A DNA stretch of 63,356 nt, counting the filler, from Reclinomonas americana ATCC 50394 (Eukaryota), in NCBI GenBank assembly GCA_048213135.1. It is 6 parts of 6 records of this genome, joined end to end, with 100 filler letters (N's around TTAATTAATTAA, not from the genome) between each part and the next. Parts side by side here need not be neighbours in the genome. Positions count along the whole stretch, not along the records: positions 1 to 18,452 come from PS015379.1; positions 18,553 to 39,270 come from PS015380.1; positions 39,371 to 44,814 come from PS015381.1; positions 44,915 to 56,658 come from PS015383.1; positions 56,759 to 61,809 come from PS015385.1; 1 more part is not named here. One strand, given 5' to 3'. The first letter of the stretch is position 1. Each line of letters opens with the position of its first letter. Shown piece by piece: positions 6,945 through 57,912 of the stretch. Below the pieces are notes generated by a model, which ran no database searches, was not told where the DNA came from, and saw only the letters and a list, made by a program, of their open reading frames with translations. The position numbers were made by a program, and so were the translations under genes.

Positions 6945-8296
6945 ATGGCGAGTCGACGCGCACACCCGTCGTCCCCGTCATCCTCCTCCTCGTCTGCCGA
7001 TGACACCGTGGGACAGTCGACAGTGACTGCTGCTGCTCCCTCGGCATCGCGCCCACGATCGCGTGCAGCAACGCCCGCGATCGAGTACTGGAAGGGTGGC
7101 ACTCTGGCACTGGTGGGACCCGCAGGCTCGGGCAAGACCAGCGTTCTTAATCGGTTGTTGTTGAGGCCTCCGGTTGGCGCCTTTGATCCACGACACAAGA
7201 TCCACACCGAGTTGCGTGCTGCACTGAGCTTCTTTCGTTTTTGTATGTGGTGCTGACTACTGTGGTCGACAGGGTACTGCCGATGCGTGTGTGCGTTGGT
7301 GCTTCATTGATCTCACTGACGATTGTTGTCGCAGAGTGAGCCGTTTGTGATCTGCGAGAGAGTGAGTTGTCTGTGTGTTGTGTTTTGTCTCTAACGAGTC
7401 ATGGTGAGGGCAGCGTGTATGAAGCACCACGTCACGATCGATGCACCCAACGGGCAGGAGATCGCCTTTGAGGTGCGGCGAGTCTTTTTGTTGTTCTGCT
7501 GTGCCGCTCTTCTTGATCTGATTTGTCGATTAGCTGCGTGAGATCCCTGGCGTGAGTCCCAAGAGCAAGCCCGGCGAGCCGCAGTTTGGCTACTCGATCC
7601 CGGAGCTGCGCATGATCTTTGAGGGTTCGTGGCTCCGTCAGCAGACCAGTGCAGCTCCATTGCTGACCTCGTTTGCAGATGGTCCACAGGTCGACGCCTG
7701 CATCCTGTTCCTGGACCGCTCCGATGTCGACAGCGTTCGAGTTCAGCTCCCGTCCGCACATATTTCACTACGCACTCCACATTGCTCACTCTCTGAGGAT
7801 CGCGCAGAGCACCGTCCAGTGGGCCCAATTGGTGCGTCTCGTCAATGCCGACATGCCGATCTTCCTCTTCACCACCAAGGTGAGCCATCGACACACATCG
7901 TCAACGCGTCACACGCGATATCTCACCCTGTGCCCCCTTGTCTGTGTGCAGACCGAATCTGCGAACTTCTCCATCGATCTCGAGGAGTGGACACGACCGC
8001 GCAAGACACCCGTCAGCGGGCGCGGTGCAGTGGCACAAGTCATCGACGCGTGGGAGATTGAATGCAACCCGCGCGACGAGACCATCCTCAATCGCAGCCG
8101 CAACAGCATCATCACGGCGCTGCGTGGCGTCTCCAATGTTGCGCACTCGCACGCACCTCTTTTCTCCCTCATGCACTCACTTGTCACCGCCACACAGATC
8201 CTCTCGCGAGAGCGAGTCGAACTCGCGCCCGAGGGAACCCTCGGACTGACCGAGGCCGAGGAGAACCCGCCGCCGCAGAAGAAATCGTGCTGCTGA
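6945..8296 (+). CDS. Divergent Ras-superfamily (Rab-like) small GTPase, multi-exon with microexons
   Basis: P-loop LVGPAGSGKTS, G3-like EIPG, VDACILFLD, G4-like FTTK-TE, and C-terminal KKSCC prenylation motif before TGA. Confidence 0.65.
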
Positions 8297-8410
8297 TGGT
8301 ATCACCTGGTACTCCATCATTCTTGCAATCTCTCAAAATCCGCACCAATACAATGTTTCCTCACGCCATCCGTCTCCTCCTTCTATCCCATCCACGACGG
8401 TGGTGCCGTC

Positions 8411-11400
8411 TCACCACCGCAGACCGAGTCGCCACACCTGCGGTTGGAGGTGTGAGCTGATGCAAGTCCATCTCGTCACCGTCGTTTAGTCGCTCTCAGT
8501 CCGCCTCTCCCTCAGTCTCTCTCAGTCTCTTAGTCTCTCCATATCTCTCCATGTCTCTCTCACTCTTCGCAATCCCTCACCGTCTATCTCTCTCCCAGCC
8601 TCTCAGAGAGAGAGAAAGAGAAAGAAAAAGAGTCTGAGAGAGGCTAGAGAGAGACACACACAGAGAGTGAGAAAGAGTCTCAGAACCTTTCTCTACTTCT
8701 CTCTTAGTCGCTCTCAGTCTATGTCTCTCTCAGTCTCTAGGTCCCCCTCAGTCTCTTTCTCTTTTTTCTCTCTCAGCCCCCTCAGTCTCTCTCTCATTCT
8801 CTCGCAGTCTCTTTCAGTCTCTCTCCATGTCTATCTCAGTCTCTCTATGTCTCCCAGTCTCTCTCAATCTCTCGCAGTCTCTCCCTGGCCCTCTCAGTCC
8901 TCTCAGTCCCTCTCTCNNNNNNNNNNNNNNNNNNNNTCCTCCTCTCTCTCTCTCTCTCTGTCTCTCTGTCTCTCTCTCTCTCTCTCTCATCCTCTTTCTC
9001 TCTCCTTCTCCTTCTCCCCCTCCCTCTCTGTCACAGTGCTCACCTTGATCGACTTGTCGCTCGAGGCCGTGACCAGAAGCGTACCGATTCGCACAAAATC
9101 ATTAATCGCCTTGGTGTGCGCCTGACATGTGTCGACGCACACCAACGTGTTTGTGTCCCACAACTGCAACACCGACATGAGCACACACGTAAGACCACAC
9201 TTGCGTGACAATACGCACCTTGACTTCACCGCCCTTGGAGCCGCTGATGAGCATGTCGTGCTCCGGGTACGAGGAGAGCGCCGTCACCCAGTCGTCGTGT
9301 GCCTTGAAGCTCTCCGTGTTCTCGTACGAGACGCCATCCCACTCCTTGATGTGCAAATCACGCGATGAGGTGTACATGGCGCCGCTGCAGAGCGCCAGAT
9401 CGGTGACCGCGTCGTAGTGTGGTGGGTGAAAGCTGGCATACTCCTCCAGCGACTGGTCGTCCCACAGCTGCCAATCGATCACGCACGGCTCAGAATCACG
9501 AGTGCGTCGTCGTTCCGCCCACAACAACAACAACTACAAACCTTCACATGGTGATCGCGAGATACCGTCACCAGCAGATGGTCGGAGAATCCCATCGAAA
9601 ACACCGTGGACGTGTGTGCCGTCTTGACGGTCACCAGTGTCTCCAGCGTCGTGGCATTCGACATTTTCACGCAGCCATCGTCGCCTGCCAAACGCTCGTG
9701 TAAGTCATCCATCCCTCCCCCTCAGAACATTTCCTCCCACTGGCGGACTCACTGGCCGAGTACAAACGCCCGCCACACTCGAGAATCGCCGTGACACCCT
9801 TCCGATGCGCCGTGACTGTGGCCAGACACTCAAAGGTGACCAAGCTCCACATCTGCGCACACACACCGGACCGATGAGAATACGAACTTGTCTGCGTGCA
9901 TTTGCAGGTGCAGACGAAACTCGAATCTTGCGGTCCTCGCCACCCGTGTAGAATCGCTTCACCTCGCCGTCCGTGTTGACACACGTACACAGGGCCGGTC
10001 CGTCGTGCGCCTGCATCGTCTTGATGCACTTTAACCGCGCCAAATCCCACAGCTGTTTGACAATGCGATGAGCAGTCCGTCGAAATCAACAACAACGAGG
10101 GGAAGACTTTGCGACGCAACTCGAGCCTGTCCATCGAGCGCGACGCTAATCAGCGTCTCGTCGTACACGTCCAGTTGCATCACGAAACCTGTGTGACCGG
10201 CCAGCACGCCCACCAACCGCATCGACTCGGACCCCTCCTGTCCATTCAGTGGATCCTGCTCGCGTACGTACGGCTTGCCAAATAGTCTCACGGTCTGCGT
10301 GGCATTGAGTGAGGAAGGAGACGACTAGAGAGAGAGACACACATGCATCCCGACTCCATTCGCACCCGCTTGGTCGTGTACTTGACATTCTCTCGCATCT
10401 GATCCGAAATCATACGACGCTGCGTTGCGTTCTCGTCACACATCACGCGCCAAGCACAGCGACACGTTTGCACAAGTGACTCACCTTTTGCGACACTGCT
10501 CGCCGCCGTCGGGCGCCCTCGCTCTCGTAGCCCATGACCTCCCGGGCCGCGGACTCGTCGAGTGCCAGCGTGACGCGGCCGGGGGGACCACTGAGCCGGC
10601 GCGGTTCGTACTCGCCAAAGGAACCCGATAGCGCCGGGCTTGTGGGCGAGAACGACGACATGCTCAGCGGTGCAATCGGAGTGTCCGCCGAACTGGCTCG
10701 CCCACCACTGGCCACAAACGCCGACCACATGGGCCGTGCCAGCGAATTGTAATCGGTAGGCGGTGGTGCACTGGCCACCTGCCGCATCATCGTTGCCGAC
10801 GACCCCGGCCCGAAGCGCGACTCGGTGTAGTTGCTAAAGTGACCGCCGGGTTGCTGCAATGCATTGAAAAGGTGAGTATCACGCTCGCCTTTTCCCTTCC
10901 TGTCACCGCCTCACGCAACTCGAATGACAGTGGTGGTGCCGGCAATGCTACTGCGCAACAGCGGCCGCGCACTGGACGGCGACGAGTCCACGTACGGCAC
11001 ATGCATGTCGTCTGCCAGCGACGACGACGACCCCGCAGCAACGCTGGTTCGCGGCCGCGGTGGCGGCGGCAAGCTCTTGCGCGACACTACAAACAAACAG
11101 AGAGTCAAACACCAGCGCCTCTCCCCCGCGCTGCAATCGCACACACGTGCACGCACCTCCGTCGGGCGAGTTCGGCGCCATGTCACCGGCCAGGTAATAC
11201 GGCGACGGAAGCGATGGCTGCCCGACGCCGCCCACTCGACTGTGATGATGCAGCTGCTGCTGGTGCTGACGCTGATGATGATGATGCGATGCCGCGCTGG
11301 AGCTCAGATCGGCGATTCGCAACGCCGCTGATGCCACTGCGCCAACATCATCAGTCGCCGTCTCTGCATGACGGAGAAATCATCAGTCATCTCTTCTGTG

Positions 11401-56589: not shown

Positions 56590-56815
56590 GTTGCGTCGCT
56601 GATGCTGCTGATGATGGATGCACAGTGTGCTCTCTGCTCACCCTTTTTCTCTCCCATCNNNNNNNNNNNNNNNNNNNNNNNNNNNNNNNNNNNNNNNNNN
56701 NNTTAATTAATTAANNNNNNNNNNNNNNNNNNNNNNNNNNNNNNNNNNNNNNNNNNNNTACGCCGACGACCCCTGCTTCGGTGTGCATACGTCTCCCCCC
56801 ACACGCGCCGCACAG

Positions 56816-57912
56816 ATGGGCCCTGATGACCAACAAGGACCAGTACGTGGTGTCGCGCTACGTCGACCGCCCGCTGCTCATTGGCGGCAAAAAGTTCGAC
56901 TTGCGCATCTACTGTCTTGTCACCTGCTTCCGGCCGCTGAAAGCCTACCTCTATCGCCTCGGCTTTGCGCGCTTCTGCAACGTCAAGTACACCAACGACA
57001 CCAGCGAACTCGACAATCACTTTATTCACCTGACCAACGTGGCCGTGCAAAAGAACTTTGTTGCGTGCGCCCGGGGCGATTGAACCACCGTGGAACTCGT
57101 GAATTTCACATGCCTGCGTGCAGAGCGCGTACAACGAGAAGCACGGCAACAAGTGGAACTTGGCCGCTCTTCGCTTGTACCTGGAGGGCGTGTATGGGCA
57201 CGAGAGATCCGACACCATGTTTCGCGGCATGAATTTCATCATTGTGCAGTCGCTTAAGTCGGTGCAGAATGTGATCATCAACGACAAGCACTCCTTCGAG
57301 TGCTACGGCTACGATATTATCGTGGACGAGGAGTTGCGATGCATTCAGTTGTGCGTGTGCTGCGTGCGTGTGTTGCTCGTGCTCACCTCTTGTGTCGTGC
57401 AGCTTGAAACCGTGGCTGGTTGAGGTACTTGCGCACTCACACATTCGCACTTGGATAAACATCTGAACATCGCTCAACATGTGCAGGTCAACGCCTCCCC
57501 AAGTCTGACCACCACCACCGAAGCCGATCGCCAACTCAAAATGAGTCTGATCGGGGACGTGCTCGACGTGACGTGCCAGACCATGCTGGGTCTCGAGTTG
57601 CGTCACGCCCGCACTCTATCCATCCATCTGCTTATCTCATCCGCCCTCCATGGGCTGCATTTGCGCAGTCCCTTGACAGGTACCCCGCTACCGGAGGGCC
57701 ACGAACCGCACCTCGGCAAGTTTGATGTGCTGTTGCGCCACTCTCCCTCTCTCTTCTCTCGCCTGCACATATCACCAACTCACTTCACTCGCATCGTGTC
57801 ACACAGGTACGACGAGAGCACGGACCCCGATGAAGTCGCTCTCAAGCAGCAGGTCGAAAAGGAACGCTTGGCGCGACAGCGGCAGCAGTGGGGTCGGCCG
57901 ATCTTCCGTTGA
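56816..57912 (+). CDS. TTLL1: Tubulin polyglutamylase TTLL1-like, 3' part
   Basis: [49 protein letters not shown]...[23 protein letters not shown] and [14 protein letters not shown]. Confidence 0.9.

Follow-up and report, generated by a model that had tools for sequence, protein, structure and literature searches.

Two 5' splice-site classes offset by one base on a shared sequence motif in a 63-kb sample of the Reclinomonas americana genome

Among mammalian 5' splice sites, those of the shifted-register type, such as GUUAAGU, carry a U after the GU, match the consensus only after a slide of one base and are cut at the GU, the slide bringing a gain in pairing with standard U1 small nuclear RNA (snRNA) (Roca and Krainer 2009, cited in Tan et al. 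2016, PMC4856993). Such sites are rare: according to the same source, the validated noncanonical registers together make up about 1.5% of human sites, and the register with a bulge at +2/+3 comprises 68 predicted human sites, 54 after curation (Roca et al. 2012, cited in PMC4856993, Table 3). Donors that are atypical throughout a lineage are described for Entamoeba, where GUUUGU(U) is accompanied by AACAAAC in U1, and for Mastigamoeba, with GUGCGC donors and ACGUAC in U1, while the GYGCGY donors of Mamiellales and the preference of Thecamonas for C at +4 occur with a standard U1 (bioRxiv 10.1101/2022.06.08.495308). Here we analysed a stretch of 63,356 nucleotides of Reclinomonas americana ATCC 50394 (GenBank assembly GCA_048213135.1; six contigs joined end to end, hereafter the window), in which an initial annotation, made from the sequence alone, had noticed two donor classes set by the last exon base. 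We find that introns in the window begin mainly either with GT and a purine after an exon-final G (G/GTR, the slash marking the cut and −1 the last exon base) or with GTT, most often GTTGCG, after one of the other three bases (H/GTT), and that the two classes coincide once one is slid by a single base. As a sequence pattern in the window, this division is well supported.

The GTT form shares with the mammalian shifted-register sites the U after the GU, the alignment with the consensus only after a one-base slide, and, by the GT-AG rule, the cut at the GU. It differs in frequency, accounting for 32 of 65 introns, and in pairing, as GUUGCGU would still pair poorly with standard U1. Sites bulged at +2/+3 have on paper the same layout of GU, U and then consensus; here, in contrast, G at −1 is disfavoured (1 of 31 GTT-class donors). 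The likeness to Entamoeba lies in a donor, atypical across the lineage, that has U at +3 and extends to a seventh position, and Entamoeba sets a precedent for U1 changing together with the donor. Entamoeba, however, has a single class (88-90% GUUUGU), few introns and, in the sections of the preprint that cover it, no reported dependence on the exon base, whereas R. americana has two classes in an intron-dense genome. The G/GTGCGT class resembles the GC-rich donors of Mamiellales and Thecamonas, for which the corresponding passages of the preprint mention neither a GTT class nor a one-base offset. In the full-text literature, supplements aside, searches for a GTTGCG or GUUGCG donor returned only primers and unrelated sequences, and GTGCGT led to Mamiellales papers only. 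We found there no prior description of what appears to be an equally common second donor class, offset by one base and tied to exon base and phase.

Three conserved genes on the plus strand allowed introns to be placed by homology. Pfam matches on open frames identified a WD40 gene resembling a dynein intermediate chain (dynein-IC; 51.4-54.1 kb), the start of a 2-oxoglutarate dehydrogenase E1 gene (OGDH; 55.6-56.66 kb) and a TTL-family gene (56.8-57.9 kb) that its homologues identify as TTLL1; the latter two are truncated because they lie at contig ends. The closest matches were 63% identical for an OGDH exon and 80% identical for a TTLL1 exon (metagenome proteins), and homologues of a dynein-IC exon, none of which came from a word-based search, were found by a full HMMER search. 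Profile hidden Markov models made from fetched homologues were mapped onto the three-frame translations, and around each junction every GT-AG pair was enumerated and ranked by profile score alone. Profile coordinates on the two sides of the junctions were 207/204, 246/245, 348/348, 420/421, 447/443, 487/498, 598/598 and 667/669 in the dynein-IC-like gene, 97/99 and 201/201 in OGDH, and 248/250, continuing through a 22-nt micro-exon, in TTLL1. The assigned donor ranked first in 12 introns and second in two (53516 and 55895), and two further donors (53784 and 56590) were supported by alignment end points together with the parse described below.

In the dynein-IC-like gene, the top-ranked pairs included 51518..51593 (G/GTGTGT, first of 13, with contiguous profile coordinates), 51711..51789 (A/GTTTCG, a variant of the GTT class, first of 5), 52106..52180 (G/GTGCGT, first of 7), 52453..52526 (T/GTTGCG, first of 6) and 52600..52661 (G/GTGCGA, first of 11). 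For 52806..52890 (A/GTTGCG) the donor belonged to the top pair and the assigned acceptor ranked fourth of four, the acceptor being uncertain in a variable region of the protein. The intron at 53236..53304 (G/GTGCGT) has an in-frame C/GTTGCG six nucleotides upstream, at 53230, and homology placed the 53236 pair first (147.1 versus 139.9). Downstream, 53516..53589 (C/GTTGCG) ranked second of 7, at 118.9 versus 123.6 for 53504, and a motif-agnostic parse picked 53516; at 53784..53848 (G/GTACGT) the profile alignment stops at 53786 and the parse offers no other in-frame GT. OGDH contributed 55895..55958 (C/GTTGCG, second of 4 at 59.0 versus 60.0, with a branch site and CAG) and 56267..56337 (T/GTTGCG, first of 51, at profile position 201/201). 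The next OGDH exon (56338-56589, 84 codons) ends in the conserved GMPHRGRLSVLCNI stretch and is followed by an intron start at 56590..56658 (T/GTTGCG), which is cut off by the contig end and where the alignment stops at 56595.

In TTLL1, 57060..57123 (T/GTTGCG) ranked first of 20. The introns 57333..57402 (A/GTTGCG) and 57425..57486 (G/GTACTT) flank the micro-exon (57403-57424), which restores part of the conserved LKPWLVE motif, and together they came out on top of 28 joint combinations (122.8 versus 112.9). Two more introns were absent from the initial annotation: 57732..57806 (T/GTTGCG, first of 7) and, as a probable intron, 57597..57668 (A/GTTGCG), which was left out of the homology-supported set because its local homology rank was only fifth of six. 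With 57597 spliced too, the six TTLL1 exons form one open frame of 250 residues with a single profile match scoring 350.8. Overall, the 16 homology-supported introns comprise six G/GT(G/A) donors and ten H/GTT donors (nine GTTGCG, one GTTTCG) without any mixed case (Fisher 1.2e-4), and all of them start with GT and end with AG, as U2-type GT-AG introns do.

A group of tandem paralogues on the minus strand (25250-29780), consisting of three gene copies and a fourth, partial one with no Pfam match, delimits introns in another way. Exon 1 (ATG...GGCCCCAA, encoding MSSIP.LIDPVGP...) and exon 2 (GVHYVATAGLIGLD...) are about 85% conserved among the copies, and the first introns (112, 409 and 408 nt), rich in GT/GA and CT microsatellites, are unalignable beyond their first 7-9 bases, GTTGCGT or GTT(G/A)CGTTT. 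Exon conservation thus ends at GTTGCGT, so that the boundaries are marked without a splice model. The first intron of the copy Uc (A/GTTGCG, 29291..29698) lies at the same position as those at 27479-27887 and 26294-26405, and comparison of the copies places A/GTTTCG at 25443 in the fourth. The second-intron donor of Uc is C/GTTGCG (29215..29220), with conservation ending 9 nt into the intron, and its counterparts are C/GTTGCG at 26218-26223 and T/GTTACG at 27403-27408. The six minus-strand sites between 25 and 30 kb in the initial annotation therefore exist as strings, but as members of tandem paralogues (29698, 27887 and 26405 share one position, 29220 and 26223 another) they represent just two intron positions and are not independent.

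Across the whole window, introns were called with a dynamic-programming parser that used codon log-odds trained on the window, a bonus for acceptor and branch site, and terms for length and composition. It required GT and AG, so its own calls are no test of GT-AG boundaries. When run without a donor model, the parser already returned GTTGCG as the top donor hexamer (21 of 111), and +3 was a purine in 27 and a pyrimidine in 12 cases after G, versus 26 and 46 after non-G (p=0.0013). In a second version a donor model was confined to intron positions +3 to +8, leaving the exon base without influence on the choice; this version made 37 GTTGCG calls among 116, and of 13 introns read by hand as a benchmark it reproduced 10 exactly, compared with 8 of 13 without the donor model. 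A position matrix that included exon bases blurred the two classes, and a census limited to acceptors having a single possible donor yielded 14 cases.

Calls were then filtered for a length of 45-150 nt, a branch site, a YAG acceptor, coding score on both sides and blocked read-through. Under the strict filter, T stood at +3 in 1 of 17 donors after G and in 20 of 29 after non-G (p=3.5e-5), and looser thresholds gave 1 of 21 versus 27 of 37 and 1 of 27 versus 32 of 44. Filtered calls and the 16 homology-supported introns were combined into a set of 65, in whose choice exon bases were never used. There, +3T followed G in 1 of 24 donors and non-G in 31 of 41 (Fisher 1e-8), and mutual information between −1 and +3, a check that the initial annotation had proposed, reached 0.50 bit, versus 0.13-0.20 for −3/+3 and −2/+3. 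GTT opened 32 of the 65 introns, in line with the large share first attributed to it, and GTTGCG opened 24, all of them after non-G; at +3, T outnumbered C by 32 to 4. Wrong intron calls should dilute such a dependence rather than generate it.

All 28 donor strings of the initial annotation were found where it had placed them, and its description of donors after G as GT(G/A) agreed with six of six homology-supported cases as well as with the near-absence of +3T in the larger set. Its statement that non-G exon ends are nearly always followed by GTTGCG holds as a strong trend and not as worded, since 10 of the 41 such donors do not even begin with GTT. Likewise, the dependence of +3 on −1 is real, but the last exon base does not fix the class strictly, since H/GTR donors exist. 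Both exceptions that it had listed, C/GTGCG at 12477 and G/GTTGTG at 20244, are present as strings, the latter on the minus strand. Several plus-strand introns outside the three conserved genes illustrate the range of the calls. The intron at 30981..31038 (T/GTTGCG), in a ubiquinol-cytochrome c chaperone gene, parses with and without the donor motif and separates Pfam profile positions 2-58 from 82-140. Ab initio evidence alone covers 7211..7272 (A/GTTGCG, called with the intron-side donor model), 12009..12064 (T/GTTGCG, in a GST-like gene with a GST_N Pfam match on the neighbouring open reading frame) and the exception at 12477..12545 (C/GTGCGT), whose read-through frame is open and which did not match the branch-site pattern. 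Predicted donors of the form GTAATC(A) or GTAATT, mostly after G, recur in a gene of lower G+C at 16.6-18.4 kb (18143, 17746 and 17185, minus strand) and once at 48.6 kb (48578, minus strand); these could reflect a third type of donor or mistakes of the parser.

The columns of the two classes show how they are related. The G/GTR class (n=21) has G in 10 and A in 6 at −3, A11/T6/C3/G1 at −2 and G at −1, followed by G15/A6 at +3, C14 at +4, G15 at +5 and T12 at +6. The H/GTT class (n=30) has G12 at −2 and A13/C9/T8 at −1, then T at +3, G23 at +4, C24 at +5, G24 at +6 and T16 at +7. After a one-base slide, +3G/+4C/+5G/+6U of the first falls on +4G/+5C/+6G/+7U of the second, and the classes coincide over G-K-T-G-C-G-T plus the two exon columns before the motif. 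With the GTT class defined from the intron side alone, its exon flank scored −122.4 bits against the G/GTR columns at a shift of +1, −147.8 with no shift and −134.4 at −1; a looser set gave the same order (−140.6 shifted, −170.1 unshifted). A G immediately before the shared motif was found in 1 of 21 G/GTR and 1 of 31 GTT-class donors. Similarly, intron phases differed between the classes (15/5/1 in the G class versus 10/7/14 in the GTT class, p=0.004), and moving one class by one phase raised p to 0.11. Intron columns, exon flank and phase after the slide thus all support the earlier claim of one motif cut one base apart, while the offset of the cut itself rests on the GT-AG rule.

Counts of the motif, made without reference to intron calls, point the same way. 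GTTGCG occurs 92 times on both strands, versus 46.6 expected from dinucleotide content, and is preceded by A in 31, C in 27, T in 29 and G in 5 cases. A motif-blind context test demanded coding sequence in compatible frames on both sides, blocked read-through and, 45-150 nt downstream, YAG with a branch-site pattern. It was passed by 23 of 92 GTTGCG sites and by 3 of 138 GTTGCA, GTTGCC and GTTGCT sites (1 of 55, 1 of 37 and 1 of 46, respectively), and by none of the five GTTGCG sites preceded by G. Conversely, G/GTGCGT passed in 6 of 21 cases and H/GTGCGT in 3 of 95. GTCGCG sites were in donor-like context in 7 of 49 cases, and GTCGCG donors recur among the calls too, for example at 34790.

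At their 3' halves the classes look alike. Median intron length is 64 versus 66 nt, and the branch motifs are common to both, with CTCAC first in each and CTGAC, CTCAT and similar strings also present. The branch A lies a median of 18 versus 20 nt before the 3' end, in agreement with the YUNAY-like site 15-40 nt from the intron end that U2-type introns should have opposite the GUAGUA box of U2. Both classes end in a CAG acceptor, which in the GTT class is followed by A in 9, T in 9, C in 7 and G in 4 cases. Given the shared length, branch site and acceptor, and with no intron family among them, nothing in the 3' half points to mobile introns or to a second spliceosome.

The explanation that we favour, at a probability of about 0.55, is a single U2-type spliceosome that recognises one core, UGCGU, in two donor forms offset by one base. 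The introns would be ordinary short (about 65 nt) U2-type GT-AG introns, and the two forms, (R)AG/GUGCGU-like and (R)A/GUUGCGU, would be variants of one motif, a non-G base followed by G-K-U-G-C-G-U. The cut would be placed at the GU, that is, after the first G if K is G and before it if K is U. In about half of the introns, the base-paired UGCGU core would then lie one nucleotide further from the scissile bond. We infer a common recognition register in which the core is read by U1, and probably later by U6, with the GU fixing the cut.

Duplex predictions with the canonical U1 5' end as printed in PMC4856993 bear on how such a core could be read. They gave −7.5 kcal/mol for G/GUGCGU, −2.9 for H/GUGCGU and −5.9 for the unused G/GUUGCGU, and H/GUUGCGU reached only −0.6 to −1.8 kcal/mol in any register. 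On these models, standard U1 would not account for GUUGCGU being the most uniform and most frequent site, and a human-style shifted register on standard U1 would be insufficient as stated, because GUUGCGU is predicted to pair very weakly with canonical U1 in any register. With pairing this poor, we would expect U1 to be adapted at its 5' end or to exist in a second variant, and we consider a lineage-specific U1 5' end likely here; the extra U might, for example, face an A, either in the only U1 or in a second variant. We hold a bolder version more tentatively and consider it doubtful: a single major spliceosome would use two 5' splice-site codes, and for about half of the introns the snRNA helix would sit a nucleotide further away from the scissile bond, possibly through a second or remodelled U1 complementary to GUUGCGU, with the GU rather than the register of U1 fixing the cut.

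Two alternatives keep the cut sites and read the offset differently, and we regard both as improbable. U1, and U6, might pair with GU and GCGU and leave the extra U at +3 (or +2) unpaired, as in the bulge at +2/+3 validated in human cells (PMC4856993); the GTCGCG sites in donor-like context fit this, as though the extra base need not pair. A bulge, however, would leave −1 facing the U1 base that it faces in the other class, and G should then stay favoured there, but it is found in 1 of 31 GTT donors. Moreover, the GTT class is shifted by one base in its −2 and −3 columns and in its phase, and T is strongly preferred to C or A at +3, all contrary to a bulge. Alternatively, donors that lack the exon G may simply need a stronger intron side, with GUUGCG being the best that this lineage offers to U6 or to a protein factor, and the one-base match would be coincidental. 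In 5' splice sites generally, a G at −1 and the positions within the intron show mutual dependencies, and the intron side of the G class is indeed looser (GTGCGT, GTGTGT, GTACGT, GTAATC and others) than the nearly invariant non-G class. Yet such compensation leaves six consecutive motif positions and two exon positions coinciding after the shift, as well as a phase that moves by one, and it sits badly with the rarity of H/GTGCGT in donor-like context, which has an obviously strong intron side.

Still less probable is an artefact of intron calling, in which the boundaries at GTTGCG have been misplaced or both real cuts lie one base further downstream, so that the exon ends in G. Homology is blind to a one-base move of both boundaries, and flank and phase would then match the G class trivially. 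But the introns would have to run TT...GN without a constant 3' dinucleotide, their last base being the variable one that follows CAG, and CAG would be conserved one base inside the real 3' end in this class alone. The donor was also first or second by homology in all 14 scanned introns of the 16-intron set, and paralogue conservation stops at GTTGCGT. We kept the standard boundaries because GT and CAG are then found at every intron. Least credible of all is a recent spread of GTTGCG introns as copies from a mobile family (introners) that carries its own donor. The uniform first 6-7 bases and the short, uniform length would suit introners, but an all-against-all comparison of 63 introns gave 12 short matches of 12-24 nt, mostly low-complexity GT/CT runs plus two neighbouring paralogous introns; GTT-class introns also interrupt old genes that are conserved, and in length and branch site they do not differ from the other class. 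An origin of the GTT class by one-base sliding is rejected by reasoning alone, because a slid intron would end in CA and not in AG. U12-type introns, whose signals are an RTATCCTT donor and a TCCTTAAC branch site, were rejected as well, GTTGCG being unlike that donor.

Several observations weigh against a common core cut at two offsets. The sample is a single window of six contigs, and part of the 65-intron set consists of ab initio calls from a parser whose best benchmark recovery was 10 of 13 and which is noisy when it relies on codons only. Some donors fit poorly: the 10 non-G donors with GTR or GTC (for example 12477, 39736 and 40842), a G/GTTGG donor at 17605 that passed the filter, with 16822 and 2767 in the looser sets, and the GTCGCG sites that passed the context test. 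Pairing in no model that we tried explains the near-absence of G/GUUGCG, given its predicted −5.9 kcal/mol. The exon-flank and phase results are linked and count once, and codon structure could yield both. If both boundaries of a GTT intron are moved downstream by one base, the frame is preserved and one mRNA base is altered, so that profile scores cannot separate the two readings; the score differences for such moves are at most about 3.6 bits, and the proposed cleavage positions rest on the GT-AG rule. Finally, no U1, U5 or U6 gene was found in the window by Rfam in permissive mode, which returned U2 as the sole spliceosomal snRNA.

This U2 gene lies at 5049..5264 on the plus strand (RF00004, 84.2 bits, E 3.6e-15), has a canonical GUAGUA branch-site box and carries an insertion within stem-loop III. 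The remaining permissive Rfam matches were dismissed as hairpin or linker artefacts, among them the 'miRNA' matches at 44753-45000, which are linker artefacts. Both strands of 3612-3710 and 8609-8771 resemble numerous unrelated miRNA-precursor models at scores far below threshold, a sign that these may be inverted repeats (hairpins), perfect or nearly so. RTATCCTY has five matches in the window, one in the U2 gene, one at 16612 and three in a CT-rich repeat. This low-complexity repeat (CTCTCCATCTCC...), on the minus strand at 62060-62480, contains three ATATCCTT strings that resemble U12-type donors.

The window is eukaryotic nuclear sequence, mostly of 52-60% G+C, whose genes are interrupted at a spacing of 150-350 nt by introns of about 55-95 nt. 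Its contigs are joined by N44-TTAATTAATTAA-N44 linkers at 18453-18552, 39271-39370, 44815-44914, 56659-56758 and 61810-61909, and extra N gaps of 20 to 912 bases each occur inside contigs. Further Pfam matches in open frames include GST, DER1, TBCC, the ubiquinol-cytochrome c chaperone, a Myb gene and others. Between 16000 and 24000, G+C is lower (42-44%) and the plus strand is strongly skewed towards A over T (0.19-0.25); the DER1-like gene falls in this part, as do the two largest N gaps. Among metagenome sequences we found 80 related loci of at most 74% identity, two of which carry GTTGCG at a density like that of the window (L013 and L079). L013, a contig of 3074 nt, holds the TTLL1 of another eukaryote, 72% identical to that of the window. 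It was rejected as an example of the same donor system: its introns, read by eye, start with G/GTAGCG, G/GTGAGA and G/GTACGC, and one GTTGCG is intron-internal.

Most of what is known about the choice of the 5' splice site, and about the mobility of the U1 and U6 helices relative to the cut bond, comes from engineered reporters and from rare exceptions in humans. If roughly every second intron of a genome has a site offset by one base, that genome would be a natural experiment on whether the GU or the U1 register sets the cut, on the joint change of snRNAs and splice sites, and on the relation of such change to intron phase. In practical terms, a gene finder trained with one donor matrix for all introns will set many of this organism's boundaries in the wrong place. 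If RNA data confirm the pattern, R. americana would have an unusual way of marking intron starts. Should the bolder version with two 5' splice-site codes prove true, this free-living, intron-dense eukaryote would provide the first constitutive, genome-wide class of 'atypical register' sites, in place of a rare exception.

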